Source of the DNA: an uncultured Gemmatimonadales bacterium
GTDB lineage: Bacteria; Gemmatimonadota; Gemmatimonadetes; Gemmatimonadales; GWC2-71-9
Assembly (NCBI GenBank): GCA_963821385.1
Contig: CAWGDK010000005.1
Coordinates: 31,538 to 95,537 of the forward strand
Length of the DNA: 64,000 bases
Direction of reading: 5' to 3'
The position numbers and the translations under genes are program-made. Positions 1,004-31,771 of the stretch are shown one piece after another. Each line of letters starts with the position of its first letter. The stretch's first letter is position 1. The notes beneath the pieces were generated by a model, which saw only the letters and a program-made list of their open reading frames with translations, was not told the DNA's origin and ran no database searches.

Positions 1004-1156
1004 CCAAATGGCAGATAAGCGGTTCCCCCTCATGACGGCGGGCAGGATGCTGGGCGAGAATCGTGTGGCGGCCCGGCACGAACTCTGCTTTGAATTCTCC
1101 TGGATCAGTCCAAGGTCAGTGCCGGCTGGAACGAGGGGAGAGGCAGTGACTCGGTA

Positions 1157-3130: not shown

Positions 3131-3355
3131 GCACGGCTGTTGCAGAGTTGCCTCACATGCCCCAGGATTGCGGCACTGCATTCCAGTAAGCCAATGGTCA
3201 GCAGCCCCTTATGAGACCGGTGGCGACTCCCTAACCGGACCGGCGCCGCGCCAAGTCACGTCTCATGATGTAGCGGAAGCGTATATTTCGTTGCCCTTTG
3301 CGATCATGTTGCGGCATCGCAACAATCGCCGCCACAACGCGTTCTCGGGACGGGA

Positions 3356-7184: not shown

Positions 7185-7197
7185 GGAAGGCGGATCC

Positions 7198-8493: not shown

Positions 8494-8702
8494 CGTCGGC
8501 ATTGCTGTCGCTCCGTTGCCACACTGGATCGCCGCGACCGACCGCAATTCAATTCGTGATATACAACCGCTTGCCACATAATGACTTGTGCAACGTTGCC
8601 AAACGTGCGGCTAGCACAAGTGCTGCATAGGCCGTCGGTGACCATGCACGTTTCATTAGCCGCACCAACGCCAGGGCCGCGGCGCAAGGGAGATGCTACG
8701 CA

Positions 8703-12725: not shown

Positions 12726-12731
12726 ACCGCC

Positions 12732-17894: not shown

Positions 17895-20800
17895 TCAATG
17901 ACAGGAGCTGGTGCCGGAATCCGCGTACGTCCCCTGCCCCTGCGCGTGCAGGAACTCCCAGCGATAGGAGTTTGCGTACAGGGTCAGCCGGATTACACCC
18001 CGCGAGAAATTGCCGTTGTCGCTGGCCTCGACGTTGGGCGGGGAGTTGACGTAGTTGGCGTGGGTCTCCCCCCCACCGGTCCCCACGATGAACTCCCGGA
18101 TGCCGGAGGCGCTCGCATTGCCCAGGGAGTCTTGCTGGGCAAATCGCTCATACAAGTGATCGTGCCCGTTGATGACGACCTCGGCCCCACCGTTCTGCAA
18201 CGCCTGCCACAGGCGTCTGATTCGCGACGATCCGCCATTCGACGGCCCGGATGTGAACAAGGCGCGGTGCCAGATGGCCAGGACACACTGGTTGGCCCGT
18301 CCCACGAGATCGCTCTGCAACCACGTCAGCTGGCCGGATGCGGGGTTGGTGACCCCGGAATCGCTGTTGAGGACGACGACGTGCCACGTGCCCAGGTCAA
18401 AACTGTAATACCCGAATCCGTTGCCCAGTGGATCGGCGACCGCCGGGCCGAAGTAGGCCATGTAGGGTGCGGCTGTGCTGCTGCTGTCGTATTCGTGATT
18501 CCCGCTCACCGGACGGGTCCGCGCCTTGTGCCGCCCCCAGGTGGGATCATAGCAATTCGTGAAATTCGTGGCCGTCCCATTCGGATACGCGTTGTCGCCG
18601 GCGGCGAACACGACGCCCGGAAGGCTGTCGACCTGATTGGCGGTAGCGTCGTCTCGAATCGAGTTGCAGTCGGCGATATCGCCGGCACCGACCAGGGTCG
18701 GTACGACTACCGCGGCTCCCGTCTGGATGATGGCGGTCCCTCCCGCCGTCGCCGAAATCGTCTTGGCCTCGACCACGGAGGAATTGAACGCCGCGGCAAA
18801 CACCCCGCTCGCATTCGTGTTGCCCGACGCGGATGGGCTGAATCCATTCCCTGTCCCGCTCGCCGACAGCACGACGGGCGACCCGCTGACGAGATTGCCG
18901 AACTGGTCCTTGACGGTGACCGTCACGGTGGACGCGTGGATGGCGGGAACGCAGGAGAACGCGCACTGGCCGATGGTGTCGGTGGCGGCGACCAGGCTCG
19001 AGAGCGAGGCATCGACCCCATCGGCGGCGATGGCAAAAGCCGCGCTGGTGACGGGCGTCAATCCACTGGAGGTCGCGTGCAGGGTGTAGCCCGCAGCGGC
19101 TTTGTCGATACTGAGGTTCGAGAAGGTCGCCACCCCGCTCGCCGCGGAAACCGAGGTGGTCCCGGACAGATTGCCGCTTCCCGGGTTCGCCGCCAGGGCC
19201 ACGGTGACGGTGTTCGAGGCGGTCGTGACGCGGTTGCCACCGAGGTCGCGAATCTCCACTCGCACCGGCGGTGCGATCGCGCCCCCCGCAGTCGCGTCGG
19301 AAGGCGGCGTCAGGAATCCCAGCTGGGCGGTCGCACCGACGCTGATATTGAACGTGCTCGAGGTGGCATCGTCGAGTCCCGAGGCCGTCGCCGTCAGCCG
19401 ATACCCCGTGCCCGCGCTGTCGATCTGCAGGGAGCTGAACGTCGCCACGCCACCGGTGGCGGCGAGAGTAGTGGTGCCAGAGAGCGTTCCATTGTTCGGG
19501 TTCGTGCCGATCGCAACCGTCACACTATTGGTGGCTCCGCTCACGCGGTTTCCGCCGGCGTCCTGGATCTCGATCTTCACGGCCGGTGTCAGTATCGCGC
19601 CACCGGCAGCGTTCGGCGGTTGAACCAGGAAGCCAAGCTTCGCGGCCGCCCCGACGGTGATGCTGAACGTGGTCGACGCTGCGCCCGCCAGCCCGCTGGC
19701 GGTGACGTTCAACGTATAACCCACGCCCGCGCTGTCGATGCTCAGGGTACTGAACGCCGCCACGCCGCCGACGGCGGCCACCGTCTTGGTCCCGGAGAGC
19801 ACCCCGCTGTTCGGATTGTTCCCGAGCGAGACCGTCACACTGTTGGTCGCGCCCGGCACCAGATTCCCCCCCGCGTCCTGAATCTCCACGTGAACGGACG
19901 GGCTGATCGGGGCGCCGCCGGGCGTCGTGGACGGCTGGACGACAAACGAGAGTTTGACCGCAGTCCCGATGATGATGTCGAAGCCGCTCGACGTCGACCC
20001 CGTAAGCCCTGTGGCGGTCGCGCTCAGGGTGTAGGCGGCCCCGGCGTTGTCGATGCTCAAATCCGAGAATGTCGCCAATCCGCCTGCGGACGAGACGGGA
20101 GTCGTCCCGGACAACGTCCCGCTCCCCGGGTTGTTCGCAATCGCCAACGCGATACTGTGCGAACCGGTGGTGACGCGGTTCCCACCGGCATCCCGGACCT
20201 CCACCTGTACCGCCGGCGCGATCGTCGCCCCGCCCCCGGTGTTGGACGGTTGCGTGCGGAATCCAAGTCGTGCCGCCGGCCCGACGGCCACGCTGAATAC
20301 GGTTGATGTGTCTCCGGTCAGCCCTGTCGCTGCGGCGGTCAGCGTGTAGCCCGTCGCCGCGCTGTCGACCGACACGTCATTGAAGGTGGCCACACCGGAG
20401 GATGCGGCTCGGGAGGTCGTGCCGCTGAGGGTTCCGTTGTTCGGGTTGGCGCCGAACGCCAGCGTAATGTTGTTGGAGGCCGCCGTCACTCTGTTGCCGC
20501 CACCGTCTTGGACCTCGACTTGGACCGCCGGGGAGATCGTGGCGCCACCGTTGGCGCTCGAAGGCTGAACCAGGAATGCCAAGTGTGCCGCCGCGCCGAC
20601 GGCGATGGTGAAGGCCCCCGATGTCGCACTGCTCAATCCTGTGGCGGAGGCCGTCAGGGTGTAGCCCGTGCCGCTCTTGTCGATGCTCAGACCGGCGAAT
20701 GTCGCAATCCCGGACACCGCCGAATGGAGCGTCGTGCCCGACAGGGTGCCGCTCGCCGGGTTGGTTCCGATCGCCACCGTGACGGTCCCCGTGAAGCTCG

Positions 20801-22490
20801 TGTCCGTATTACCGAGACTGTCCCGCGCGGTGACTTGCACGGCCGGGGTGATCGGCGACGCGGCAGCGGTGTTGGACGGTGAGGTGGTGAACACCAGTTG
20901 CGTGGCCGCTCCCGGCGTCACGGCGAAGCTGATGCTCGTATCCGGGACGAGCCCGCTGCTTGTCGCGCGAAGTCGATAGCTGCCGCCGGACTGGTTGACG
21001 CTCAGGTCGTTGAACGTCGCGACCCCGGCCGAGGCGGCCCTGCTCTTGGTCCCCGACAACGTTGCGCCACCGGCGTTCAAGAGCGCGATGGTCACACTGT
21101 TGTTCGCGGTGGCGACGCGATTGCTGAAGGCGTCCAGCACCTCGACCTGGACGGCGGGGGCGATGGTGATTCCCGCGGTCGTGCCCGTGGGGTCCGTGAG
21201 GAATGACAACCGGCTCGCGACTCCCGGCGTGATGCTGAAGTCGTTCGAGACCGCCGTGGTGAGCCCGGTGGCCGCGGCCGCGAGCGAATAGCCCGTGCCG
21301 GCCTTGTCGATACTCAGGGACGAAAAGGCCGCCACGCCGGCCACCGCCGGCAGGGTCGTGGTACCGGAGAGCACCCCGCCGCTCGGGTTGTCGAGGATCG
21401 CAATGGTTACACTATTCGTCGCCGTCGTCTCCCGATTGCCGAAGGCGTCTTGGATCTCTATCTGCACGCCTGGCGTCACCATCGCGCCCGCGACGGTCGT
21501 CGACGGTTGGGCGGCAAACGCCAGCACCGCCGCCGCCCCGGGGGTGACGGTGATGGTGTCGGTTTGGGTGACCACGACGCCGGCGATGGTGGCGGATGCC
21601 ACTTTCGTCTCCGCCACGGTCGAGCTGACCGCACCCGTCGCTACGCCCGCGACGTTGGTGGTGCCCACCGGCTGTGTGATGGCATTGCCCGATCCCGTTA
21701 CCGAGAGAACAACGGACGCGCCGGCGACGGGATTCCCCTGGGAGTCCCGCGCGGTGACGGTAATCGTCGCCGCACTCGCCCCCGAGCTGGCGGTGATCGC
21801 CGTTGGCGCCGCCGTGAGGCTCGACTGCGTGGCGGAAATCCCCCCCGCGATGACGTTGAAGGCGCTCGACGTGGTGCCCGTGAGCCCGGTGGCGCCCGCC
21901 GTCAGCGTGTACCCTGTGCCGGCCTTGTCGAGACTGAGGTTGCCGAATGTGGCCACTCCAGCCACGGCGGCCTTGGTCGTCGTCCCTGAGAGCGTGCCGC
22001 CCGCCGGATTGGCGCCGATGGCGATCGTGATGGTGGCGGTAAACGAGGTCGCGGTGTTGCCGAACGCATCTTGGGCGTTCACCTGCACCGCTGGGGCGAT
22101 CGGCAACCCCGCGCCCGTGGTCGTCGGCTGAACCACGACCACGAGTCGCGTGGCCGTGCCGGCGTTCACCGTGATGATCGCCGTCCCGGTCTTCCCTTCG
22201 CTGGTGGCGGTGATCGTGACGACACCGGGACGCTTCCCGCTCACCAGGCCCGTCGCATCCACCGTGGCACTGGTTGTGTCGCTGCTGGACCAGGCAATGG
22301 CGCGTCCGGTGAGACTGGTGCCGTTCGCATCCTTCAGAACGGCCGTCAGCTGCAGGGTGGCGCCAGCCGCTAGCGGCGCGGTGAGCGGGCTCAGGGTGAC
22401 GGACGCCACCGGCGCCGCCGGCCCGATATCCGAGCCGCACGCGACGGCGAGTATCGCCACCCAGCACCGAAATCGGGTCGCCCGATTCAT
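17895..22490 (-). CDS. giant surface lipoprotein: Big_2 module plus about 11 Ig-like repeats plus C-terminal metallophosphoesterase (paralog of 13555..17778)
   Basis: Start taken at ATG 22490 (MNRATRFRCWVAILAVACGS lipobox, GGGAGG upstream); the longest ORF extends to 22553. C-terminal motifs GAGDIADC, AGDNAYPNG, GNHEY, VLNSD, GHDHLYE. Confidence 0.85.
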   Translation of the reverse strand: MNRATRFRCWVAILAVACGSDIGPAAPVASVTLSPLTAPLAAGATLQLTAVLKDANGTSLTGRAIAWSSSDTTSATVDATGLVSGKRPGVVTITATSEGKTGTAIITVNAGTATRLVVVVQPTTTGAGLPIAPAVQVNAQDAFGNTATSFTATITIAIGANPAGGTLSGTTTKAAVAGVATFGNLSLDKAGTGYTLTAGATGLTGTTSSAFNVIAGGISATQSSLTAAPTAITASSGASAATITVTARDSQGNPVAGASVVLSVTGSGNAITQPVGTTNVAGVATGAVSSTVAETKVASATIAGVVVTQTDTITVTPGAAAVLAFAAQPSTTVAGAMVTPGVQIEIQDAFGNRETTATNSVTIAILDNPSGGVLSGTTTLPAVAGVAAFSSLSIDKAGTGYSLAAAATGLTTAVSNDFSITPGVASRLSFLTDPTGTTAGITIAPAVQVEVLDAFSNRVATANNSVTIALLNAGGATLSGTKSRAASAGVATFNDLSVNQSGGSYRLRATSSGLVPDTSISFAVTPGAATQLVFTTSPSNTAAASPITPAVQVTARDSLGNTDTSFTGTVTVAIGTNPASGTLSGTTLHSAVSGIATFAGLSIDKSGTGYTLTASATGLSSATSGAFTIAVGAAAHLAFLVQPSSANGGATISPAVQVEVQDGGGNRVTAASNNITLAFGANPNNGTLSGTTSRAASSGVATFNDVSVDSAATGYTLTAAATGLTGDTSTVFSVAVGPAARLGFRTQPSNTGGGATIAPAVQVEVRDAGGNRVTTGSHSIALAIANNPGSGTLSGTTPVSSAGGLATFSDLSIDNAGAAYTLSATATGLTGSTSSGFDIIIGTAVKLSFVVQPSTTPGGAPISPSVHVEIQDAGGNLVPGATNSVTVSLGNNPNSGVLSGTKTVAAVGGVAAFSTLSIDSAGVGYTLNVTASGLAGAASTTFSITVGAAAKLGFLVQPPNAAGGAILTPAVKIEIQDAGGNRVSGATNSVTVAIGTNPNNGTLSGTTTLAATGGVATFSSLQIDSAGTGYRLTATASGLDDATSSTFNISVGATAQLGFLTPPSDATAGGAIAPPVRVEIRDLGGNRVTTASNTVTVALAANPGSGNLSGTTSVSAASGVATFSNLSIDKAAAGYTLHATSSGLTPVTSAAFAIAADGVDASLSSLVAATDTIGQCAFSCVPAIHASTVTVTVKDQFGNLVSGSPVVLSASGTGNGFSPSASGNTNASGVFAAAFNSSVVEAKTISATAGGTAIIQTGAAVVVPTLVGAGDIADCNSIRDDATANQVDSLPGVVFAAGDNAYPNGTATNFTNCYDPTWGRHKARTRPVSGNHEYDSSSTAAPYMAYFGPAVADPLGNGFGYYSFDLGTWHVVVLNSDSGVTNPASGQLTWLQSDLVGRANQCVLAIWHRALFTSGPSNGGSSRIRRLWQALQNGGAEVVINGHDHLYERFAQQDSLGNASASGIREFIVGTGGGETHANYVNSPPNVEASDNGNFSRGVIRLTLYANSYRWEFLHAQGQGTYADSGTSSCH

Positions 22491-22525
22491 GCTCCTCCCG
22501 TCTCTACCGTAGATTGATCGGCGCC

Positions 22526-23749
22526 ATGCCGACCCGTCCGCCGCTGCTGCCACGCTCGATCGCCCGGCTCGCCCTCGGGGCCGCGCTCGGATTCATTCTC
22601 CTGACCACGCTGGCACCCTTCCCCGGCGCACGCGCGCCGGACTTCGTCGGGTGTCTGATTTGCGGCACCCGAGGCTCGGCGGACGCGCTCGTCAATCTCC
22701 TCCTGTACATACCCCTTGGCGCCGCCCTGATGATAAACGGACGGGCGGGCGGACGGACGGTCGCCCTGGCCGGAATGTTGTCGGCGGGTATCGAATTCCT
22801 TCAGATCTTCATTCCGGGCCGTGATCCCAGCCTGGGAGACGTATTCTTCAATACCGGCGGCGCCGCGGTGGGCCAGGTCACCGTGCACTTCCTGGCGCGA
22901 TGGGCGACTCCGGACGCGCGCACCGCCGCACGCCTTTCGGTCGCCGCCGCCTTGACGGCGCTCGGTGTGTTCGGTCTGACGGGATGGCTGCTGCGGCCAG
23001 CGCTCCCCGTATCCGCGTTTCGCGCCTGGTACACGGCCGATCGACCAGATCTCGAGTTTTACCACGGCCGTGTGCTGAGCACGACCCTGGGGGCGGTTCC
23101 GTTCAGCACCGCCGACGTTCCGAACCCCGGTGAAGTGCGCCACCTGCTCCTCACCGGGGCCCCCTTGCATATCCTGGCAGTCGCCGGCCCGCGCGTCCGC
23201 GCGCTCGGCCCGTTGTTTGTGATCGAAAACCGATGGGGAGAAGAGATCTTTCTCCTCGGCCCTGATCGCGACGACCTCGTGCTGCGGTATCGCACGCGAG
23301 CCGCCGCGCTGCGACTCGATCAGCCGGACCTGCGGCTGCGTGACGCCTTTGCCGGAGTCGCTGCCGGCGACACCCTGCGAATCGAGGTGAGGCGGGAGCA
23401 CGGTGCGTATTGCCTCGCGGTCAACCGAGCAGGTGCGTGCGGACTCGGGTTCACGCTGGGCAGCGGCTGGGCCGTGCTGTTGTACCCGAGACACTTTCCG
23501 CCGTGGCTGCAGCAGCTGTTGAGCATCGGGTGGGTGGCCGGCATCGCCTTCCCGGTGGGATTCTGGGCGCGGCGGCGTTGGGAAAGCGGGCTCGCCTGGG
23601 TCGTGCTCGGGAGCGGGCTGGCTCTCGTCCCACTGTTCACAGCCCTGGTTCCGACGCCGGCCAACCAGTGGGTGGGCGCGGGCGCCGGGGCGCTGTCCGG
23701 AGTGGCGCTCGGGTTGCTGGTCGGTCGCCGGAATACGCAGACGCGCTAG
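22526..23749 (+). CDS. VanZ-like family membrane protein with extended C-terminal region
   Basis: N-terminal VanZ-like pattern (LLTTLAPFP..NLLLYIPLGAAL..IEFLQIFIPGRDPSLGDV) and terminal TM helices. ATG 22526, or TTG 22514. Confidence 0.6.
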   Translation: MPTRPPLLPRSIARLALGAALGFILLTTLAPFPGARAPDFVGCLICGTRGSADALVNLLLYIPLGAALMINGRAGGRTVALAGMLSAGIEFLQIFIPGRDPSLGDVFFNTGGAAVGQVTVHFLARWATPDARTAARLSVAAALTALGVFGLTGWLLRPALPVSAFRAWYTADRPDLEFYHGRVLSTTLGAVPFSTADVPNPGEVRHLLLTGAPLHILAVAGPRVRALGPLFVIENRWGEEIFLLGPDRDDLVLRYRTRAAALRLDQPDLRLRDAFAGVAAGDTLRIEVRREHGAYCLAVNRAGACGLGFTLGSGWAVLLYPRHFPPWLQQLLSIGWVAGIAFPVGFWARRRWESGLAWVVLGSGLALVPLFTALVPTPANQWVGAGAGALSGVALGLLVGRRNTQTR

Positions 23750-25188
23750 CGCGCCCGACTCGTCAGGAGAAACGTGTCGAACGCGGGGCCCGTTCGCGGC
23801 GGCGTCCGGGTCACCCGTCCCTGCGGGACGGGCGGAGCGATGCCGGTCAGCGGAACACGGATCGGTGTACCCCGGTACACCCCACTCACCACCGGGGGAT
23901 CAAACAACGCCTGCACGTTGCGTATCTCGTAGCGATCGCCGGCCCGCAAGACCGTGCCGACATCCACCGCCACAGCGGCGCGCCCCTCCCAGTTGTACAC
24001 GACGATGTGCGCGCGGCCGGCTTCGTATTTATTGGCGCGCACAAACACCCGTGTGAGCGCCGGTCGCTCCGATTCTACACGATCCCGGCCACCGAGGCCG
24101 CTGGCGTGTTGCCACCCATTCCAGTCGTACGCCCGGTCCTCGAATCGCCACGCTCGCGCAGTGGCATCCCGCCCCCAGTGGTTTCCCGACCACTGGTAGT
24201 GCTGGTCGAGCCTCGCCCCGCCTACCTTTACGACGTCGCGACTTCCGATAAACGTGTTTCCCTCAACGATCGCGTGCATCCAGGGCTCGACCATCTCGAG
24301 CCCGATCTTGCCTCCGGCGGCATAGTTGTCGCGCAACACCAGGTCGCGGTTGTTTTGGGGAGCGTACTTGCCAACCCGCAGATTGATCCCGTCCCGACCG
24401 GAGAAGTAGAGCATGTTGCCGATGCCGGCCATCCCCTCGGTGGGGACCGGCGCGTTGAAGATCAGGTTCTCTCGCGCGGCGGCCACGGTGGAAATCGTTC
24501 CGTTGTTGAAGGCCACGTTTCCTTCGACCCGGATATTGCGAATGGTCGGATTGTTGCGACTGGCGTAGACCTGAATGCCGCGGGCGAGGTTGTTGAAGAA
24601 CACATTGTCCGCGATCACCTTCGTGCCAGTTTCATTGTGCACGTACACGCCGTGATCGAGGTTTTCATGCGTCCCGTTGTTGTAAATGATGCACCCGTAC
24701 AACTCGGCATCGACCGCCGGAGTCCAGAAACTGACTCCCTGCGTCCCTGCGTCGTGAATGATCAGATTGATGAACCGGCCGTGAGCGGTGTTGGCTTGCA
24801 GCCCGTACGTCTCCGGGGTCGATTGCATGATCTCGAATCCCCAGAACGTCAGGTAGGAACCCTCCGCACGCAGGGTCCCGTCGATCGTGGCCCGTTCGCC
24901 CGGCCACTGCCGAAACACGATGGCCCGGCCCGGTAATCCCGCGAGCGCCGTCCGGAACGCGCCGCGATAGGTCCCGCCCCGCAGCCACACCGTATCACCG
25001 GGCTGCAAACGCCCCGCCGCGCCGGACAGGGCGGTCTCCAGCGTCCACGGATGTTCCGCCGAGCCCGTGCCGCCGGCGGACGCCGTCGGCGCGACGTAGT
25101 GGCCGCCATGCGCCGGGATGGCCGGGACGGTGCCCGCCGGTGAAGGCCGCGCAATCACCGCCGTGGCTGCCAGGACGGCAACCACCAT
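23746..25188 (-). CDS. secreted right-handed parallel beta-helix protein (pectate-lyase-fold), paralog 1
   Basis: Colinear with 25205..26722 (PGDTVWLRGGTYRGAF/AGDTVWIRGGTYPGSF, PGERATIDG, repeated NN/HD rungs). Start taken at ATG 25188 (MVVAVLAATAVIA signal), just after the upstream stop; the longest ORF reaches 25305. Confidence 0.7.
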   Translation of the reverse strand: MVVAVLAATAVIARPSPAGTVPAIPAHGGHYVAPTASAGGTGSAEHPWTLETALSGAAGRLQPGDTVWLRGGTYRGAFRTALAGLPGRAIVFRQWPGERATIDGTLRAEGSYLTFWGFEIMQSTPETYGLQANTAHGRFINLIIHDAGTQGVSFWTPAVDAELYGCIIYNNGTHENLDHGVYVHNETGTKVIADNVFFNNLARGIQVYASRNNPTIRNIRVEGNVAFNNGTISTVAAARENLIFNAPVPTEGMAGIGNMLYFSGRDGINLRVGKYAPQNNRDLVLRDNYAAGGKIGLEMVEPWMHAIVEGNTFIGSRDVVKVGGARLDQHYQWSGNHWGRDATARAWRFEDRAYDWNGWQHASGLGGRDRVESERPALTRVFVRANKYEAGRAHIVVYNWEGRAAVAVDVGTVLRAGDRYEIRNVQALFDPPVVSGVYRGTPIRVPLTGIAPPVPQGRVTRTPPRTGPAFDTFLLTSRAR

Positions 25189-25204
25189 CGGCCACGCCGG
25201 CGTG

Positions 25205-26722
25205 CTACGGAGCCGCACTCGTGAGCAGAAAGACATCGAAATCCGGACCGGTCGTGGGCGGCAGCCGCTGCATTGAGCGCCCGATCGTCGGCGGCGGGGC
25301 CACACCGTTCATGGGGATCGCGATGGTGCCACCCGCATAGGTCCCCGACACGACGGGGGCATCGTACACTCGCTGGACGTTGCGGACTTCGTAGTGATGC
25401 CCCGGGGTCACGATGCTCGAGACATCGACGTTCACCGGGTTGTCATGGCCGAAATTGTAGACCACGATGAAGGCTCGTCCCGCCTCGTACTGGTTGGGCC
25501 GCAGGAACACCCGCGTCGCCGTCGGTGCCCCGCTGACCACAGAGTCGGTCGCCCCCAGACCGGTGGCCGCTTTCCAGGCGGCGAACGAATAGCCGAGGCC
25601 ATCCTGCTCCCATGCGTTCGCGGATGAATCGCGGTGATAGGTGTTCCCCGACCAGGTATAGGTGTTGACCAGAGGCCCACCCGTATGCACCACGTCGGTC
25701 GAACCGATAAAGACGTTGTTCATCACCGTGGCCTGCGCCCACTGATACTGCATTTCGAGCCCGACCGTCCCGCCCACGGCGAAATTGTTCTCGATGTCGA
25801 TACCCTTGTTGAGCAGCGCACTGTCGGACACGTCGTAGTTGCCAAGCCGGAAATGGATACCGTCTTCGCCGGGCGAGAAGTACAGCAGGTTGTCTCTTGC
25901 CACCATGCCGGTAATCACGGTCTGCGCGCTCATCAAGAGATTCACCTCGCTGGAGCCCGTGGAGATGGTGCCATTGTTGAACGAGATGTTGCCTGCGACC
26001 TCGAAGTTTTGGATGGGACTTGTACCGCCTTCATACACCTGGATGCCGCGAGCGAAATTGTTGAAGAAAACGTTGTCCGTGATGTATTTGGTGCCGGCAG
26101 TCGAATTGTGTGCGTAGACACCGTGATCGAGGTTGTCGTGGAAGCCGTTGTTGTAGACGATGCTGCCGTACAGCTCGACGCCATTGCCGGAACCGGTCGC
26201 CATGCTCACACCCGAGGTCCCGGCGTCGTGCAGCACCAGATTGATAAACTTGCCGTTCAACGTGTTCGCCTCGAGCGTCCGGTCCACCACCTGGATCGGA
26301 TGGGACTGCATGATCTCGAACCCCACGAACCACAGGTTCGAGCCGGTCGCGGCCAGGGAGCCGTCGATGGTCGCTCGCTCTCCCGGATACTGACGGAACT
26401 GAATCGGCAGACCGGCTTGACCGTTGAGCGACGTGCGGAAACTCCCCGGGTACGTGCCGCCCCGAATCCAGACGGTATCGCCCGCCTGCAACTGGTGGAC
26501 GTGTCCACCCGCCAGGGCCGTGGCCAGGTCCCAGGGCGCGTCGGTGGCCCCCGAGCCGGACGTCAGCCCGTACGGCGGGGGATACACGTAGTAGCCCGCA
26601 TGCGTCCCAGGGGGAGGCGGAGGAGGCGGGGGCGGGGGCGGCGTCCCGCCGTCGGTCTTGCAGCCAGCCACCAACAGGGCGCCAACGCACAGCAAGAGCC
26701 CCATTGGGGCCCGATAGGGCAT
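25205..26722 (-). CDS. beta-helix lipoprotein with poly-proline linker, paralog 2
   Basis: MPYRAPMGLLLCVGALLVAGC lipobox, P12 linker, then a beta-helix core with repeated rungs (IVYNNGFHDNLDHGVY, FFNNFARGIQVY, ISFNNGT). The ORF track start GTG 26731 is also possible. Confidence 0.75.
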   Translation of the reverse strand: MPYRAPMGLLLCVGALLVAGCKTDGGTPPPPPPPPPPPGTHAGYYVYPPPYGLTSGSGATDAPWDLATALAGGHVHQLQAGDTVWIRGGTYPGSFRTSLNGQAGLPIQFRQYPGERATIDGSLAATGSNLWFVGFEIMQSHPIQVVDRTLEANTLNGKFINLVLHDAGTSGVSMATGSGNGVELYGSIVYNNGFHDNLDHGVYAHNSTAGTKYITDNVFFNNFARGIQVYEGGTSPIQNFEVAGNISFNNGTISTGSSEVNLLMSAQTVITGMVARDNLLYFSPGEDGIHFRLGNYDVSDSALLNKGIDIENNFAVGGTVGLEMQYQWAQATVMNNVFIGSTDVVHTGGPLVNTYTWSGNTYHRDSSANAWEQDGLGYSFAAWKAATGLGATDSVVSGAPTATRVFLRPNQYEAGRAFIVVYNFGHDNPVNVDVSSIVTPGHHYEVRNVQRVYDAPVVSGTYAGGTIAIPMNGVAPPPTIGRSMQRLPPTTGPDFDVFLLTSAAP

Positions 26723-26935
26723 CACGATCACAACCCCCGATTCGAAGGACTACAGGACTGGAAGTCGGGTCACCGGCTCGCGGGGGCGAGCGCCCCGGCC
26801 CAGGAGGCCGGGACAACCCATCCGTCGCGTGAAGCAAGAACTTAGCCGGGCCGCCCCCACCGGCCCCAGGTCCTGAGGCCTTCCCCAATCGGACCAAACT
26901 GTAGACCCGATGCAACAGGGAGTGAGCGCCCTCAG

Positions 26936-28454
26936 CTATCGCTCGTAGGCGCCCAGGTCGGCTCCCTGCCCCCGCGCGCGGCAGAGGCCGTCGATATCGA
27001 ACGGCGCCGCGTACGTCGCATCGGCCTGATCGATAGCGGGGCTTCCGGCCTTCAGATGCAGGTCGTTGGCGTAGGCCTGATGCGTGGTCGACGGGGTGGA
27101 GGCTGTCGGGTTGACCAGGAACGGATCGGCCACGACGTTGCCGACGATGGTGGCATTGGTGTTCCAGTGACTGGTCCCGTCGTTGCCGTTGTTCCAGAAC
27201 ATGTTGTGGATCTCGACATTGCTGCTGCCGCCACTGGATCCGCCGGTATTGATCCCCACCCCGTCGTTCACGTTGCCATTATTGACGACGATGTTGTTCG
27301 CGAACACCCAATCGTGCGTGCTTTCGGCGATGTCCATGCCGGACCGGCCGTTGCCGACGACCGTATTGTTGACGACGAGGATGTGATTCGCACTGAACCG
27401 CGCCGAGAGACCTTTGGCGCGATTGTGCTCCAGCACGTTGTTCGCCACGACCCCTCGGGTCCCGTCGTGATAGTAGATCCCGTGCGATGTGTTTTCCTGA
27501 CTGGGGTCGTTGAACCCGCCGTTGTCGTGGATGTAGTTGCCCAGAATCCAGATGTCGTCCCCCCCGGCCGCGATCCCGGCATGCCAGCCGCCGTGAAACA
27601 CTTCCGAGTTCGATACTTCGATATGGTGGCTGGCCCCCGGATCCATCTGGACCAGGTTTTCTCCCTGCCGGGAGGACGCCCCCCATGGACCACAGCTCGG
27701 GCCCTCGACCACGACACTCGATAGCCGGAAATACGATCCGGACAGTCGAATCTGCCCGTGCAACACGGCGCGTTCCCCGGCATACCCCTGTACCGTGATC
27801 GGCGCCGCGGGCGCTCCCGCCCGTTTGAATGTCGACGCCGTACAAAAGGCGCCGTACGTCCCAGCCCGCAGATACGCGATCTGCCCCGGTTGGAGCGCAT
27901 CGAAGGCCTTCTGCAGTGTCTTCCATGGCGCCTGAAGCGTACCCGGATTGGCATCCGACCCCGCGGTGGCGGAGACGTAAAACGCCGTCCCCGTGGACAA
28001 CGGCATCCGTGGGTAGATCGCACTCGGCCACGGATTGGGGCACCCGGTGGCGGGCGGCGGCGGCGGCGGCGGGGGGGGGCGGCGGGGGCGGCGGTGTCGA
28101 CCCCGTCACCTGCACCGCCGCGGACGCGGATTGATTCTCACAGGTCGCGGTGATTGTGACCGTGCCTCCGGCCATGCCATAGACCAGACCACTGGCATCG
28201 ACGGTGGCCACATTGGGATCGCTGCTGGCCCACGTCACGACGCGGTTCTCCAGCGGCGCGCCGCTCGAGTCCTGGGGGGTGGCGTGCAGCTGCACGCTTT
28301 CGCCCGCCGTCACGGTCGCATCGGCCGGTGTCACGGCGACCGTCGCGACCGGCGGACCCGCAGGCCCCGCCGTGCGATCGAGCACACAGGCAGGCATCAA
28401 CAGACACAAGGCAAGCAGGGTCACAACAACGGTGTGTTGGCGATGCTGAAGCAT
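26936..28454 (-). pseudogene. Big_2 - polyPro - beta-helix lipoprotein (paralog 3), reading frame broken by +1 nt in a C9 run
   Basis: ORF from 28454 gives signal LALCLLMPAC plus a Big_2 domain plus STPPPPPPPP, then nonsense. The beta-helix frame (ORF 26936..28006) is open upstream through PPPPPPPPPATGCPNPW to the same run (28071-28079). The span is 1519 nt = 3n+1. SD GGGAGG lies 7 nt upstream of ATG 28454. Confidence 0.7.
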
Positions 28455-28564
28455 AAACGACCTCCCGCGTCGGCGTGAGCGGCGGTGTGGTGGATGGCCG
28501 ACTTACGGCGGAAGGAAGGCGGACCACGCGGAGCGACCGGCCGCCTCGTCCGACCGAAGTCGAA

Positions 28565-28654
28565 TCGCTGGCGGCCCGGCTGGCCTGGCGGAGACATCCG
28601 CGGTAGCCCCGTGACTCTGCGTCACCGCCTTTCGACGGCTTTGCTCTGAGCAGC
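28565..28654 (-). promoter_or_regulatory. GEMM-I class cyclic-dinucleotide riboswitch aptamer (copy A)
   Basis: Minus strand reads CGCUG-CUCAGA-GCAAA-GCCGUC-GAAA-GGCGGU-GACGCAGAG-...hairpin...-AGCCGGGCCGCC-AGCG. It matches the GCAAA / GNRA hairpin / GACGCAAAGC / AGCCGGGCUGCC blocks of c-di-GMP-I. Covariation is seen against copies B and C. Confidence 0.75.
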
Positions 28655-28673
28655 GTCCTGCTGTGGCAGCTGC

Positions 28674-28712
28674 TCCCACGGCGCGATGCCGCTGCGGCAT
28701 CGCGCCCGTGGG
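28674..28712 (-). terminator. strong GC hairpin immediately after the Big_2-metallophosphoesterase stop
   Basis: CCCACGGGCGCGAUGCC-GCAGC-GGCAUCGCGCCGUGGG on the minus strand (about 16 bp with one bulge). It starts 16 nt after the stop at 28728. No U-tract. Confidence 0.45.
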
Positions 28713-28727
28713 GCAGATTCGTCGTGC

Positions 28728-30146
28728 CTAGTGGCACGTTCCGCTGCCGGTGTCCGTGAACGACTGGCCGGCAACGGGGACAAACTCCCAGGCATAGGTG
28801 CCCGGCCCGAGCGTGAACTTCAGGACCCCAAACGTGGTCCCGTTGAACACCTCACTGTTGGCCAAGGGCGTTCCCTGCCCGTAGTGGCTCTCCCCGCCCG
28901 TTCCGGCAATGAATTCGCGGATCCCGTTGACCGGGTCCGCGTCGCCGCTCGGCGTCTGGAGAGCGAACCGCTCGTAGTTATGCTCGTGACCAGCGAGAAC
29001 GATTTCGGCGTGGAAGTCGTACAGCGCCTGCCACAACGGTTGGGCCGAGCTCAGGCTGCCGTGGTGGCTGCCGCTCGAGAAGCGGGGTTTGTGCCAGTAC
29101 GCCAGCGTGCAGGTTTTGGACGACGCGGCGAGGTCTGCGCGCAGCCACGTCTCCTGCGCCGATCCAGCGCTCATCGACGTTTCGCTATTCAGCGAAACGA
29201 TGTGCCAGTCCCCTAGGTCGTAGCTGTAGTAGCCGCGCCCTGATGGTCCAGCGAGATCGCCGAAGTATCCGTAGTAGCCGGCCGCGCCACTGGTGTTGTA
29301 GTCGTGATTTCCCGGGGCCGGCCGCGTGCGCGTCTTGTGTCGTCCCCAGGTGGGATCGTAGCACTGGGAGAACTGCGAAGCGGTACCGCTGGAGTACACG
29401 TTGTCGCCCAGCGTGTAGACTGTTCCCGGAATGCCGTCGAGCAGCGCCGCGGTGGCCTCATCGTTGTCGTTGCCACAGTCGGAAATGTCTCCGGCGCCCG
29501 CGAAGACGATGCCGCCCGCCGTGCTCATCACAGTCACGCTCGCCGTGTCGGCCAGGGTGCCGCCGGCCTCGAGCGCGATGACGCGGTACGTTCCGGCAGC
29601 GGATCCGGCGGTGTAGAGACCCGTGGCCGTGATCGACCCGCCCGTCGCGTCATAGCTCACCACCGCTGCCACGGAATCACCGTTACTCATCCGGCCGTAC
29701 ACGGCGAACTGTTGCGTGCCGGCGATTGAGACTGTCACGGCTGCCGGCACGAGCACCACCTGCGCGAGAACGGCGGGTCCACTCACCGTGACCGTGACGT
29801 CCGCGGTATCGGCCAGCGTCCCACCCACCTGCGTAGCGATCACTTGATAGGTGCCGGCGACTCCGCCCGCGATGTAGCGGCCATCGGCGTCGATGGTCCC
29901 ACCAGTGGCGCTCCACGCGACGGTCACGGGCTGGGTATCGCCTTGCGCCGTGCGCGCGGCGGCCTCGAACTGCAACGATTGGCCGGCGGGGACATTCGTG
30001 GTTTCGGGTGTGATGACGATTTCCTCGACATCGGTAGGACCGCTGGGTGGTCTGGAGCGCTCGCAGGCGGTCGAGATGGCGATCAGGACGACGAGCGGGT
30101 GCGCGAGCCATGTGCGCCCTCGCGTCCCAGTGCGTAGATGGTGCAT
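28728..30146 (-). CDS. lipoprotein: three Big_2-like modules plus C-terminal metallophosphoesterase (short paralog of the giants)
   Basis: Lipobox LIAISTAC. C-terminal motifs GAGDISDC, LGDNVYSSG, GNHDY, SLNSE, GHEHNYE and a C-terminal SGTCH as in the giants. SD AAGGAGG lies 6 nt upstream of ATG 30146. Confidence 0.85.
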   Translation of the reverse strand: MHHLRTGTRGRTWLAHPLVVLIAISTACERSRPPSGPTDVEEIVITPETTNVPAGQSLQFEAAARTAQGDTQPVTVAWSATGGTIDADGRYIAGGVAGTYQVIATQVGGTLADTADVTVTVSGPAVLAQVVLVPAAVTVSIAGTQQFAVYGRMSNGDSVAAVVSYDATGGSITATGLYTAGSAAGTYRVIALEAGGTLADTASVTVMSTAGGIVFAGAGDISDCGNDNDEATAALLDGIPGTVYTLGDNVYSSGTASQFSQCYDPTWGRHKTRTRPAPGNHDYNTSGAAGYYGYFGDLAGPSGRGYYSYDLGDWHIVSLNSETSMSAGSAQETWLRADLAASSKTCTLAYWHKPRFSSGSHHGSLSSAQPLWQALYDFHAEIVLAGHEHNYERFALQTPSGDADPVNGIREFIAGTGGESHYGQGTPLANSEVFNGTTFGVLKFTLGPGTYAWEFVPVAGQSFTDTGSGTCH

Positions 30147-30165
30147 TGGGCACCTCCTTCACGGG

Positions 30166-30217
30166 ACAACAACGCACGGGCCGCCAACGTCGACCCGTGT
30201 CGAAGCGCTGGCGGCCC
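30166..30217 (-). terminator. putative riboswitch-B expression platform (terminator stem using the aptamer 3' strand)
   Basis: Minus strand GGGCCGCC..UCGAC-ACGG-GUCGA..GGCGGCCC followed by GUGCGUUGUUGU. Confidence 0.45.
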
Positions 30218-30297
30218 GGCCGACCTGGCAGGATGGCTCCCGCGGTAGTCCCGTGGCTCTGCGTCACCGCCTTTCGGCGGCTTTGCTCTGAGCAGCG
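30206..30297 (-). promoter_or_regulatory. GEMM-I class cyclic-dinucleotide riboswitch aptamer (copy B, proximal of tandem pair)
   Basis: Same block structure as copy A. The P2 hairpin is GCCGCC-GAAA-GGCGGU. The P3 helices differ from copy A by compensatory changes. Confidence 0.75.
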
Positions 30298-30339
30298 ATC
30301 GAAGCGATGCGAGGCTGAGTTTCGACTGGACGAGGGCTT

Positions 30340-30388
30340 ACAACGAAAGGGCCGCCCCCTTCGACCAAGGTCGAATCGCTGGCGGCCC
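30340..30388 (-). terminator. putative riboswitch-C expression platform (intrinsic terminator using the aptamer 3' strand)
   Basis: Minus strand GGGCCGCC-AGCGAUUCGACCUUGGUCGAAGGG-GGCGGCCC followed by UUUCGUUGU. Confidence 0.5.
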
Positions 30389-30469
30389 GGCGGGCATGGC
30401 GGAGGAGGATTCCGCGGTAGCCCCGTGACTCTGCGTCACCGTCTTTCGACGGCTATGCTCTGAGCAGCG
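30377..30469 (-). promoter_or_regulatory. GEMM-I class cyclic-dinucleotide riboswitch aptamer (copy C, distal of tandem pair)
   Basis: Same block structure. The P2 hairpin is GCCGUC-GAAA-GACGGU (U-A where copy A has U.G and copy B has C-G). Confidence 0.75.
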
Positions 30470-30595
30470 ACATCAGCATCGTGTGGCCCGCGTACACTCG
30501 GCGGCGAACGGAGGTTCCGCGAAATACAGAAGTCGTCGTGGTGCCGCAGAATGGGTGACATGAGTCACGCCAAGCCCGGTAGCATGCCGGACGCG

Positions 30596-31771
30596 CTATG
30601 GCTGAGACACGATCCGATAGAGGTCGCCGCCCAGCGTCGTGATGTACAACGCGCCACGCGCGTCCTCGCCGAAGGAGCTAAGTCCTCCGCTCACCGCTAA
30701 GGCCGGCCAATCAAGTGGATCGGTGGCCTGTCCGCCGCTGAAACGGAATGAGCGCACCCAGCCGCTGCAATAGTCCCCATACAGGTAACGTCCCAGCAGA
30801 TCCGGCACCGTGCTGTCGCGCGACACATATCCGCCCGTCACCGAGCACCCTTCTCCGTGGCTGTATTCCAGGACCGGGAGGGCGAGACCCGGCACGGGGC
30901 AGGACGAAGCCGCGTAGCAGTGCAATCCCTCCATCTCATTCCAACCGTAGTTCCCACCACTGGGCGCGCCGGCCGGCAGCACATCCACTTCCTCCCAGGC
31001 GTTCTGGCCCACATCACCCAGGTAGAAATCCCCCGTCTGTCGGTCGAACGAGAAGCGCCATGGGTTCCGCACGCCGTAGACCCAGATCTCCCCGCGCGCA
31101 CTCGTATCGCCGACAAACGGATTGTTGGACGGAATGGCGTATGGTACCCCGGCATCCACATCCAATCGCAGGATCTTGCCGAGTAGAGCCTTCCGATTCT
31201 GCCCGTTCCCATCCGGGTCCCCGCCTCCGCCACCATCGCCCAAGCCGGCGTACAGCTTGTCATCCGGTCCGAACAACAACAGCCCGCCGTTGTGATTGGA
31301 TTGGGATCGGTGGCCCACGGTGAGCACGGTGTCCCCGGAAGTGGAGTCGGCGATATCCGGGTTCGACGACACGAGATATCGTACGATCCGAAGGTCACCC
31401 GATGGAGTGGTGAAATAGACGTAGAACTGGCCGTTCCCGGCGTAGTCGGGATGAAACGCCAGGCTCAACAACCCGCGTTCGCCCCCCGCGGAAATGTGAC
31501 CGGAAATGTTCAAGAACGGCGTGACCAGCAGCGTATCGTGGTGCAAGACACGGATCCGACCACCCTGCTCCACCACAAACAGGCGCGCTGTGTCCCCCGG
31601 CGGCGTCGTGACGAAAATGGGCGAGCTGAGGCTGCCGGTGACCAAGTGGAGCGCCGGCGTTCCCGGTCCCGGGCCAGGGCCAGGCCCAGGGCCCGGACCA
31701 GGACCCGGGCCCGCGGCCGTCCGCTCGCACGCCAACAAGGCCAGCGCCCACGCCACCCACCGTGCCGTCAT
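30596..31771 (-). CDS. PQQ-dependent soluble sugar (glucose/sorbosone) dehydrogenase, lipoprotein with (PG)8 linker
   Basis: HNGGLLLFGPDDKLY, GDGGGGGDP, LGKILRLD and GVRNPWRFSFD beta-propeller motifs. Confidence 0.85.
   Translation of the reverse strand: MTARWVAWALALLACERTAAGPGPGPGPGPGPGPGPGTPALHLVTGSLSSPIFVTTPPGDTARLFVVEQGGRIRVLHHDTLLVTPFLNISGHISAGGERGLLSLAFHPDYAGNGQFYVYFTTPSGDLRIVRYLVSSNPDIADSTSGDTVLTVGHRSQSNHNGGLLLFGPDDKLYAGLGDGGGGGDPDGNGQNRKALLGKILRLDVDAGVPYAIPSNNPFVGDTSARGEIWVYGVRNPWRFSFDRQTGDFYLGDVGQNAWEEVDVLPAGAPSGGNYGWNEMEGLHCYAASSCPVPGLALPVLEYSHGEGCSVTGGYVSRDSTVPDLLGRYLYGDYCSGWVRSFRFSGGQATDPLDWPALAVSGGLSSFGEDARGALYITTLGGDLYRIVSQP
31662..31712 (-). repeat. imperfect GGNCCN hexanucleotide repeat encoding (Pro-Gly)8
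   Basis: Translates as GPGPGPGPGPGPGPGPG directly after the signal peptide of the dehydrogenase. Confidence 0.8.

Follow-up and report, generated by a model that had tools for sequence, protein, structure and literature searches.

The window analysed here, the whole 64-kb stretch of DNA from a soil-type Gemmatimonadota genome, holds four minus-strand genes (A to D) led by riboswitch aptamers, together with two giant paralogues of gene A, a polysaccharide locus and conserved single-gene neighbours. The genes encode purple acid phosphatase (PAP)-like and beta-helix proteins and are arranged as follows:

1094..13526, plus strand: Wzx/Wzy-type polysaccharide locus (AsnB, Wzx, unknown, Wzy, ATP-grasp, GT4, GT2, deacetylase), convergent with gene F
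13555..17778, minus strand: gene F, giant lipoprotein with seven Big_1/Invasin_D3 repeats and a C-terminal PAP-like head
17895..22553, minus strand: gene E, giant lipoprotein whose Big_2/Big_1-type repeats precede a C-terminal PAP-like head
22514..23749, plus strand: VanZ-like membrane protein, a conserved opposite-strand neighbour by synteny
23746..25236, minus strand: gene D, apparently secreted paralogue of C, no lipobox; ORF open to 25305
25205..26731, minus strand: gene C, lipoprotein (LVAGC) with poly-Pro linker, right-handed beta-helix and C-terminal beta domain; Pfam Beta_helix
26936..28454, minus strand: gene B, lipoprotein signal, Big_2, poly-Pro linker and beta-helix (AlgE/PL9-like); 1-nt frameshift
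28071..28079, minus strand: C9 homopolymer (G9 on the plus strand) in the poly-Pro linker of gene B, site of the frame break
28728..30146, minus strand: gene A, lipoprotein signal (Cys28), two Big_2-like Ig domains and PAP-like metallophosphoesterase head
30596..31771, minus strand: GSDH-family lipoprotein, a conserved neighbour upstream of the aptamers and not controlled by them

The head of gene A matched Pfam Metallophos (4e-9) and PAPs among PDB sequences, and a Foldseek search returned plant and mammalian PAPs (E 1e-13 to 1e-9), with a TM-score of ~0.65 normalised to the target over ~300 aa for mammalian PAP, as expected of the PAP fold. It shares with the plant and mammalian enzymes, including the wheat PAP phytase 6GJA, the five motifs GD, GDxxY, GNHD, xH and GHxH that carry the seven metal ligands (D, D, Y, N, H, H, H), here D220, D248, Y251, N280, H352, H387 and H389, all invariant in 39 homologues; the concern raised in an earlier sequence-only reading, that the phosphoesterase domain might lack metal ligands, is answered by the presence of all seven. 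Gene A nevertheless differs from these PAPs in being a bacterial lipoprotein with a Big_2 stalk in place of the plant fn3-like N-domain, in its conserved C-terminal GSGxCH and in a sequence identity of only 14-20%. The AF2 model (pLDDT 78.8) places Ig-like domains at residues 40-120 and 127-207, so that the stalk has two such domains rather than the three Big_2 units first counted.

The phosphatase domains of E and F are 43-46% identical to that of A and end in the same GSGxCH, confirming the two giant phosphoesterase paralogues noted earlier. They are the closest paralogues of A, yet they are not riboswitch-led: the RF01051 search of the 64-kb window found no riboswitch before either gene. 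The adjoining polysaccharide locus brings together flippase, polymerase and glycosyltransferases (Polysacc_synt_3, Wzy_C, GT4, GT2, deacetylase, AsnB), as expected of a Wzx/Wzy system; it abuts F and lies ~10 kb from the riboswitch-led genes, the distance originally given.

For gene C, the AF2 model (pLDDT 89.9) is a right-handed parallel beta-helix with a Pel9A-like N-terminal cap, and the top Foldseek matches were the PL9 lyases BT4170 (5OLQ) and Pel9A (1RU4), followed by PL6 lyases and tailspikes, with weak sequence matches as well. This agrees with the suggestion that the fold is one typical of polysaccharide enzymes; for gene B the nearest comparison is the mannuronan epimerase AlgE4. Sequence identity to PL9, PL6 and AlgE4 is 13-19% and TM 0.4-0.6, and C and D also differ from these enzymes by an additional C-terminal beta domain. 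PL9 and PL6 lyases have a Ca2+-binding acidic (Asp) cluster and a catalytic Lys, with an additional Arg in PL6; no counterparts of these residues could be assigned in the proteins studied here, since a profile search of PDB sequences with the beta-helices matched the N-terminal cap alone and gave no residue-level alignment to a lyase. Charged residues on successive turns of the helix are invariant (H168, D169, E186, D202, H203, K215 and R228), among them the acidic D169, E186 and D202 and the basic K215 and R228. PF22842 was found on homologues, and the family is essentially confined to Gemmatimonadales (947 hits). All of B, C and D are beta-helix proteins, as first described, with 52% identity marking C and D as close paralogues; B is more distant (30-33% over ~200 aa), lacks their C-terminal domain and is frameshifted. 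Likewise, the description of all riboswitch-led products as exported lipoproteins holds for A, B and C but not for D. Lipobox cysteines closing the signal h-region were read by eye in A (ISTAC), B (MPAC), C (VAGC), E (AVAC) and F (LAAC) and are conserved in alignments, whereas D, which likely starts at M24 (25236), shows an Arg-rich n-region and then an h-region, lacks the Cys by the same reading and therefore looks secreted.

Upstream of genes A and B, the following RNA features were identified:

30375..30471, minus strand: aptamer R1, class 1 GEMM-I variant, first of a tandem pair (RF01051 51.9 bits, match 30378-30469)
30341..30388, minus strand: R1 expression platform, terminator hairpin GGGCCGCC...GGCGGCCC, then UUUCGUUG (sequence reading and terminator scan)
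30204..30299, minus strand: aptamer R2, class 1, second of the tandem pair (55.0 bits, match 30207-30297)
30166..30217, minus strand: R2 terminator hairpin and U-rich tail (sequence, terminator scan and MFE fold)
~30153-30160, minus strand: gene A SD GAAGGAGG, preceding the ATG at 30146
28675..28712, minus strand: GC hairpin just 3' of the gene A stop (-45 kcal/mol, no U tail), which may mark the 3' end of the A transcript or stabilise it
28564..28657, minus strand: aptamer R3, class 1, single, in the B-C-D leader (56.9 bits, match 28567-28655)
28539..28577, minus strand: R3 competing hairpin GGGCCGCC...GGCGGCC (sequence and MFE fold)

All three aptamers score well above the RF01051 gathering score of 35 bits (E 2e-8 to 3e-7 for the 64-kb window) and reach 105.4, 103.3 and 106.5 bits (R1, R2 and R3) with a model built from relatives. 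They share the helices and GAAA tetraloop of the canonical c-di-GMP-I riboswitch (Vc2, RF01051), and compensatory changes in 13 of 27 pairs, in an alignment of 49 related aptamers, back these helices by covariation. Scores and covariation together bear out the earlier proposal that the genes are led by riboswitches of a cyclic-dinucleotide class. Known members of the family control adhesins, chitin-binding and other secreted proteins. The sequence class is, however, distinct. We define class 1 as the aptamer subclass with A20, A47, G48, C90 and C92 (Vc2 numbering), exemplified by the R1 core, CAG-A-GCAUAG...GACGC-AGAG. Within the GEMM-I ligand-contact trio G20/A47/C92, A47 and C92 are retained in R1-R3 while position 20 is A (context CAG-A-GCAAAG ... 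GCC-AGC), and A20 with retained C92 is the combination that marks GEMM-Ib cGAMP aptamers.

The A at position 20 occurs in 153 of 166 related aptamers, in all nine found without sequence bias (window and protein-fetched loci) and in all 131 matches to a pattern in which R was allowed. Every class-1 copy also has G48 and C90, and the bases at 20 and 48 vary strictly together (153 A/G aptamers versus 8-10 G/A), a linkage that could stem in part from common descent of a recently expanded aptamer family. Canonical G20/A48 aptamers, which score higher with RF01051 (67-75 versus 50-65 bits), occur in the same phylum and even in the same genomes, and often share a leader with class 1, in eight leaders directly downstream of a class-1 aptamer. 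The second aptamer of some related tandem leaders is canonical, or RF03167-like. Heterotypic tandem riboswitches are familiar as two-input gates, as with SAM and AdoCbl at metE or guanine and PRPP; the related loci resemble these in pairing two aptamer types in one leader, and the window differs from them in holding a homotypic class-1 tandem only. Contigs of Nitrospiria with 45% GC also carry the class-1 core; there it precedes fn3 proteins, and one of these has a PAP N-domain.

The leaders contain a competing terminator design. In R1, the 5' arm of the terminator is formed by C92 together with the 3' strand of aptamer P2, and the hairpin appears in the ligand-free MFE fold to the exclusion of the aptamer pairing; the same arm with a T-rich tail is present in 119 of 148 class-1 leaders. 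Without ligand, the P2 strand and C92 (GGGCCGCC) would pair with the downstream GGCGGCCC to form the terminator, whereas ligand binding would hold them in the aptamer and allow read-through. Because ligand would sequester the terminator arm and let transcription continue, we propose R1-R3 as ON switches, a logic that we infer for the living cell. The R3 hairpin has no U tract in its leader, and its read-out could therefore be termination or translation. Gene A would sit behind two switches in series, giving a steeper response or a higher threshold, and B-C-D behind one switch only.

The closest described systems are the Geobacter GEMM-Ib riboswitches, ON switches that often occur in tandem before extracellular proteins (PMC6456294) and include the 3',3'-cGAMP riboswitches Gs1761 and Gm0970 (Kellenberger 2015, Nelson 2015 and Ren 2015, via PMC6140456 and PMC6456294). 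Class 1 is alike in its GEMM-I fold, in the replacement of G20 by A with A47 and C92 kept, in its predicted transcriptional ON logic, in its frequent tandems, in the extracellular or outer-surface proteins and lipoproteins downstream, and in the presence of c-di-GMP-type GEMM-I aptamers in the same genome. At the junction it is unlike them: Gs1761 keeps A48 and U90, and class 1 has G48 and C90, so that the analogy with GEMM-Ib is imperfect. In Vc2, A48 and U90 form a Hoogsteen pair (PMC11705072). Class 1 further differs in its hosts, which are Gemmatimonadota and a few Nitrospiria, and in its regulon of Ig/fn3-stalked lyases and phosphoesterases in place of the cytochromes and pili of Geobacter.

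Across the phylum, class-1 aptamers individually lead Ig/fn3-stalked exported proteins, with Big_2 in 47 of 67. The heads are varied: Beta_helix (9), Metallophos (9), PL14 (6), PF14099 lyase (4), PF04185 phosphoesterase (3) and alginate lyase (1), with PilZ proteins behind two leaders. Since the heads are interchangeable behind the same aptamer class, the locus is one instance of a broad riboswitch regulon, and the pairing of phosphoesterase and beta-helix that the sequence-only reading had singled out as a special system loses its particular standing. Our main reading, to which we give a probability of roughly 55%, is that the locus belongs to a Gemmatimonadota riboswitch regulon for stalk-mounted surface exoenzymes, controlled by class-1 ON switches that probably respond to a ligand other than c-di-GMP alone. 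The products of A, B and C would be lipid-anchored through the N-terminal Cys and held off the membrane by Ig domains or poly-Pro linkers, and that of D released from the cell. Their heads, a binuclear PAP-type phosphoesterase (A) and three PL9/PL6-like beta-helix enzymes (B, C and D), would most likely work together on acidic and phosphorylated polymers outside the cell, trimming, recycling or scavenging them; these polymers could be EPS that the cell itself makes from the adjoining locus or material from the environment. Degradative heads dominate the regulon, a composition that suits such trimming or scavenging no less than it suits matrix building.

As to the ligand, G20A is the defining change of cGAMP riboswitches, but A20 alone does not exclude c-di-GMP, because it is bound at 53 nM by the Vc2 G20A mutant and bispecific A20 aptamers occur in nature (PMC6140456). 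Judged from the aptamer sequences, c-di-GMP is probably not the sole ligand. The likeliest one is 3',3'-cGAMP or some other cyclic dinucleotide distinct from c-di-GMP, with some possible cross-reactivity towards c-di-GMP. A bolder proposal, which we put at slightly less than an even chance, is that A20/G48/C90 defines a new GEMM-I specificity class for such a dinucleotide, serving a second signalling pathway in Gemmatimonadota and some Nitrospirota, governing the stalked lyases and phosphoesterases phylum-wide and forming a two-messenger gate with the canonical aptamer in some leaders.

Ordinary c-di-GMP control, with A20/G48/C90 as lineage drift and a high-c-di-GMP sessile state promoting matrix building or remodelling with the neighbouring EPS locus, is a competing explanation that we consider unlikely. 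It could draw on the following points: (i) RF01051 is the best Rfam family for R1-R3, and A20 aptamers can bind c-di-GMP, as above; (ii) only two GGDEF genes lie in the ~1 Mb of fetched loci, each with the canonical Asp, and no cGAMP synthase, a class that covers Hypr GGDEF enzymes and CD-NTases, was found there; and (iii) PilZ proteins follow two class-1 leaders, and adjacency to the EPS locus is conserved. However, canonical G20/A48 aptamers kept in the same genomes and leaders are hard to explain if both types share one ligand, the A20/G48 core is kept across two phyla of very different GC content, and the regulon is one of degradation, not of biosynthesis. The connection made earlier with c-di-GMP and a sessile state is therefore doubtful; if the ligand were plain c-di-GMP, the finding would reduce to a lineage-specific regulon of a known riboswitch.

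A separate question is whether the genes act together. Several Gemmatimonadales MAGs show the same syntenic arrangement of EPS locus, giant Ig-phosphatases, VanZ, three beta-helix genes, phosphatase and GSDH, complete with riboswitches, so that the neighbourhood conservation proposed as a check was indeed found; the order of the EPS locus beside the giant genes is identical in L128 and L129, and the gene F orthologue in L128 has 1407 aa. All syntenic relatives are fairly close (65-80% aa identity), and the synteny may be inherited rather than selected, each riboswitch-led gene acting alone and the EPS locus and giant paralogues being bystanders. Gene-by-gene attachment of the riboswitch to variable heads phylum-wide, the lack of riboswitches at E and F and a paralogue at another site in L008, beside a phytase, favour this view, but at least six MAG lineages preserve the order, and in L004/L005 the phosphoesterase and Big_2-beta-helix genes were duplicated together as a pair, with a separate riboswitch for each copy, and we regard the absence of any functional coupling as rather doubtful. 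That the proteins are non-enzymatic adhesins or surface-layer components, with stalks and beta-helices that attach and phosphatase-like heads that bind without hydrolysing, is very improbable: Foldseek relates the Ig tandem of A to Leptospira LigA and S-layer proteins, the giant paralogues are invasin/Big_1 repeat proteins and no beta-helix catalytic residues could be assigned, but the PAP ligands and the charged beta-helix residues are invariant and other heads under the same riboswitch belong to recognised lyase and phosphoesterase families.

Under the preferred reading, a regulon of surface exoenzymes under a non-c-di-GMP signal, class 1 could extend such dinucleotide signalling to a major, poorly studied soil phylum; cGAMP signalling through riboswitches has until now been regarded as narrow in distribution, in Geobacter and relatives (PMC8835794; bioRxiv 10.1101/600031). 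The class-1 aptamer is sequence-defined, easily synthesised and present in well over a hundred Gemmatimonadota leaders, which makes its ligand directly testable, and the heterotypic tandems would be natural two-input RNA gates. The regulon points to the extracellular activities placed under the signal, polysaccharide lyases and phosphoesterases on Ig stalks, and so bears on soil carbon and phosphorus turnover and on matrix handling by Gemmatimonadota.

In gene B, the Big_2 segment reads in the frame of 28454 and the beta-helix segment in that of 28006, and the two join only after one base is removed from the C9 run, the longest homopolymer of the window; the orthologue in L001 is a single 498-aa ORF, and the gene is also intact in L015, L049, L115 and L127. 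The other flank of the locus (31.7-47 kb) consists of housekeeping genes (HflX, RarA, ZIP, CCA-adding enzyme, AlaRS, RecX, RecA and FtsK).

The locus had been read from sequence alone as a second-messenger-gated surface module, a stalked phosphoesterase and three beta-helix lipoproteins beside an exopolysaccharide (EPS) locus. The locus itself was observed soundly, apart from protein-level details corrected below (Ig count in A, the frameshift and divergence of B, and the lipobox of D), and the system-level idea was partly right, but it is better recast, with this locus taken as a single member of a variant-GEMM regulon. An Rfam scan of the 64 kb returned three matches only, all c-di-GMP-I (GEMM-I, RF01051), and at E<=1 nothing beyond these three aptamers was found in the B-C gap or the rest of 22.4-30.7 kb. 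The features are as follows.

Features of the locus (window coordinates, strand)
30596-31771, minus: GSDH-family lipoprotein (PQQ-type sugar dehydrogenase), (Gly-Pro)n linker after the lipobox
30378-30469, minus: aptamer R1
30207-30297, minus: aptamer R2
28728-30146, minus: gene A, Ig-stalked purple-acid-phosphatase (PAP)-like lipoprotein
28567-28655, minus: aptamer R3
26936-28454, minus: gene B, beta-helix protein
25205-26731, minus: gene C, beta-helix protein
23746-~25236, minus: gene D, beta-helix protein
Beyond D, plus: VanZ gene
17895-22553, minus: gene E, giant Ig-repeat protein with PAP-like head
13555-17778, minus: gene F, giant Ig-repeat protein with PAP-like head
1094-13526, plus: Wzx/Wzy polysaccharide (EPS) locus, adjoining F

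The window has a GC content of ~67%, and the nearest relatives of its proteins are from Gemmatimonadales MAGs. The GSDH gene is a conserved neighbour that lies upstream of the aptamers and is not under their control; the flank beyond it was considered as an EPS locus and rejected, its genes being housekeeping genes. The starts of E and VanZ overlap or lie a few tens of bases apart (22490-22553), so that their divergent intergenic region is almost absent here, while it measures ~290 nt in the related locus L001.

In the Rfam alignments of R1, R2, and R3, the G that the model has immediately 5' to the GC-AAA of P1b is replaced by A; this is position 20 in Vc2 numbering (C17 A18 G19 G20 G21 C22 A23-25; the Vc2 pairs G21-C46 and C22-G45 are confirmed [PMC11705072]). 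G20 reads one guanine of c-di-GMP, and its change to A defines the cGAMP-sensing GEMM-Ib class; both ligands are bound by G20A Vc2 and by some natural A20 aptamers (PMC6140456). A20 was present in six of six aptamers of the protein-fetched loci, and the aptamers that we call class 1 also carry G48 and C90, at positions where A48 and U90 of Vc2 form a Hoogsteen pair beside the pocket (PMC11705072). A pattern scan of the genome collection that permitted A or G at position 20 yielded at least 119 loci, almost all in Gemmatimonadota (Gemmatimonadales and Longimicrobiales), with A in 131/131 matches. RNAalifold of 49 aptamers supported the GEMM-I fold, with compensatory changes in 13 of 27 pairs. 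A covariance model built from these aptamers recovered 166 in the fetched DNA, comprising 153 A20/G48, 8-10 canonical G20/A48 (...AAAGGCAAACC...GACGCAAAGC...GCCGAA), and one A20/A48, a predominance of class 1 that is partly by construction, since the loci were fetched with the class-1 core. Three observations are informative here: the strict linkage of positions 20 and 48, the placement of the canonical aptamers, which came in only as by-catch, and their scores.

The two classes also occur side by side. In eight leaders, a class-1 aptamer is followed directly by a canonical one, never in the opposite order and once as a 1-1-canonical triple (L036), and these leaders precede multi-Big_2/fn3 proteins. 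The canonical aptamers score 67-75 bits against RF01051, compared with 50-65 for class 1; two of them, the second aptamers of L025 and L078, also clear the gathering score of RF03167 (c-di-GMP-I-GGC), an orphan variant. Furthermore, two 45% GC Nitrospiria contigs share the core CUCAGAGCAAAG...UGACGCAGAG...GCCGAGCCGCC with differing P1 and P2 sequences. In these aptamers P2 is extended by a long insertion and the terminator is clean; the genes downstream encode signal-peptide fn3 proteins, the product in L056 continuing into a purple-acid-phosphatase N-domain.

Leaders with heterotypic tandems and Nitrospiria aptamers (locus, coordinates)
L025, 5346-5619: heterotypic tandem
L065, 7704-7973: heterotypic tandem
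L075, 1952-2224: heterotypic tandem
L078, 4479-4753: heterotypic tandem
L083, 6736-7035: heterotypic tandem
L087, 1292-1565: heterotypic tandem
L074, 3580-3934: heterotypic tandem
L036, 6984-7416: heterotypic triple
L056, 772-942: Nitrospiria, A20/G48/C90
L080, 520-660: Nitrospiria, A20/G48/C90

That two pocket-variant classes are kept side by side, and that the variant core recurs in a second phylum, suggests a separate ligand specificity for class 1. A six-frame regular-expression search for Hypr GGDEF proteins in the limited DNA at hand (~1 Mb of window and loci) yielded two GGDEF genes, each carrying an Asp at the selectivity position, and no cGAMP synthase, an outcome that is uninformative. 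In the literature searched, nothing linked Gemmatimonadota or Gemmatimonas to GEMM, cGAMP riboswitches, or Hypr GGDEF. That the metallophosphoesterase A might be a feedback phosphodiesterase for the riboswitch ligand was rejected as the main reading, A being an exported lipoprotein.

Cyclic-dinucleotide riboswitch control of secreted proteins is established. Among known systems the Geobacter GEMM-Ib cGAMP regulon comes closest; it has in common with class 1 the A20, ON terminators, tandems, extracellular targets, and coexistence with c-di-GMP aptamers; in contrast, the aptamers described here carry G48/C90, belong to another phylum, and precede other target genes. The aptamer subclass, its phylogenetic range, the regulon, and the heterotypic tandems appear to be undescribed so far.

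In each window leader, a downstream GGCGGCC(C) can pair with the 3' strand of the aptamer, GGGCCGCC (P2 3' strand plus C92), which thus doubles as the 5' arm of a hairpin; in ligand-free minimum-free-energy folds this hairpin wins, with P1/P2 broken. The same arm is found 10-35 nt downstream in 119/148 class-1 leaders, most with at least five T in the next 12 nt. Such an overlap of aptamer strand and terminator is the usual architecture of transcriptional ON switches, as has been shown experimentally for Geobacter GEMM-Ib (PMC6456294), and the class-1 leaders are predicted to work in this way. A U-rich tail follows the hairpins of R1 and R2. A lies behind two complete switches in series; B-C-D lie behind one (R3), whose hairpin has no U tract, making its read-out less certain. 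A further hairpin (-45 kcal/mol; 28675-28712, minus strand) without a U tail stands directly past the A stop codon, ~20 nt before R3, which suggests that A and B-C-D are separate units. A sigma-70 promoter scan of 23-31 kb gave 0 sites. Directly past the B stop codon (~26900-26917, minus strand) lies a conserved block, TGTTGC(A/G)T...TC(T/C)ACA, which is kept in five orthologous ~250-nt B-C intergenic regions and has no Rfam match; its spacing, judged by eye, does not fit a sigma-70, sigma-54, or ECF promoter, and it may be an operator or internal promoter element.

To describe the regulon, 67 proteins, each encoded by the first complete ORF that follows a class-1 aptamer, were subjected to a Pfam scan, which was used after grouping by the C-terminal 300 aa had merged everything through shared Ig repeats. 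Stalk domains were abundant (Big_2 47, Big_1 24, fn3 11, and Invasin_D3 10), and a rough regular expression found lipobox-like N-termini in 40/67. The heads were Beta_helix (9), Metallophos (9), PL14 (6), PF14099 polysaccharide lyase (4), PF04185 phosphoesterase (3), PilZ (2), alginate lyase (1), and CEMIP beta-helix (1). Because the class-1 switch precedes such varied stalked heads, each with its own copy, the pairing of phosphoesterase and beta-helix proteins is not a closed system but a local sample of a larger stalked lyase/phosphoesterase set. The heads are degradative in character, which agrees no less well with the trimming, recycling, or scavenging of acidic and phosphorylated polymers than with the building of a matrix. 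Given the conserved EPS neighbour, remodelling of the cell's own matrix is still a candidate role.

Synteny was examined in contigs carrying homologues of A. The order GSDH, aptamer, Ig-metallophosphoesterase, Big_2-beta-helix, beta-helix, beta-helix, VanZ (opposite strand), and giant Ig protein is found in L001, L003, L004/L005, and L006/L007, with an RF01051 match before the phosphoesterase gene in each. L001 has a further match before the B orthologue, and L004/L005 carry the pair of phosphoesterase and Big_2-beta-helix genes twice, with a separate aptamer for each copy. The EPS gene order beside the giant genes and VanZ is kept in L128 and L129, found via EPS deacetylase homologues. Since order and aptamers are kept in related loci, the co-occurrence on which the sequence-only reading depended is conserved, in relatives that are only moderately distant (65-80% identity).

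The AF2 model of A shows two Ig-like domains, rather than the three originally assigned, followed by the phosphatase head. The protein matches wheat PAP phytase 6GJA in a sequence search of the PDB (E 2e-9), its fold resembles that of PAPs from plants and mammals (Foldseek E 1e-13 to 1e-9), and the paired Ig domains are similar to Leptospira LigA. All seven metal ligands of PAPs (D220, D248, Y251, N280, H352, H387, and H389) are conserved without exception across 39 homologues. This family is very large in the phylum (at least 7922 homologues at E<=1e-10 among the 8000 candidates scored), and its stalks are of the Big_2, Big_1, PKD, and invasin types. A shares 43-46% identity with the C-terminal heads of E and F, and all three share a ...GSGxCH terminus. 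The window's F ends in the phosphatase domain itself, whereas in L128 (10797-11696) and L129 (10767-11648) the F orthologue is set apart from the EPS deacetylase by a separate 293-299-aa Metallophos ORF.

C and D are paralogues (52% identity), as had been proposed for all three beta-helix proteins, but B shares only 30-33% with them over about its first 200 residues; likewise, not all riboswitch-led genes encode lipoproteins, as D has a signal peptide without a lipobox Cys. B is split over two frames (signal peptide, Big_2, and poly-Pro part versus beta-helix part), the only frameshift in the cluster, and removing one C from a C9 run inside the poly-Pro linker (28071-28079, minus strand; the longest homopolymer in the window) restores a single ORF. 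B orthologues are intact (498 aa in L001), one with an in-frame C8 run. Possible explanations for the frameshift are an error of sequencing, decay to a pseudogene, and slipped-strand phase variation.

The AF2 model of C is confident (pLDDT 89.9), and its top Foldseek matches are PL9 rhamnogalacturonan lyase 5OLQ, Pel9A 1RU4, PL6 alginate lyases, and chondroitinase B, followed by depolymerases of phage tailspikes; B has weak sequence matches to AlgE4/AlgE6 epimerases and PL9 lyase. The C/D family (947 matches) is essentially restricted to Gemmatimonadales and has invariant charged residues on successive beta-helix turns. A sequence search of the PDB with C gave poly-Pro noise only, and the match of the family profile to a PL6 lyase did not extend beyond the N-terminal cap, so no catalytic residues could be carried over. 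As the invariant residues could not be aligned to a lyase active site, we go no further than to infer that C and D are probably enzymes rather than adhesins.

Several relatives of these elements occur in other contexts. In L008 (10001-12905), a paralogue of A (P0010) without an aptamer has a beta-propeller phytase as its neighbour, in a region of APH-kinase and efflux genes, which hints that part of the stalked-phosphatase family serves phosphate scavenging. The second aptamers of L101 (3190-3287) and L050 (1982-2077), in which position 20 is A or C, position 48 is A, and GGCGC replaces GACGC, precede Big_2 plus CEMIP-like beta-helix proteins and may be a further variant. In L037 (558-1599, minus) and L059 (6206-7242), a canonical c-di-GMP-I aptamer stands alone in the leader of orthologous receiver-domain proteins with a degenerate GGDEF (HVGDSRL for RxGGEEF).
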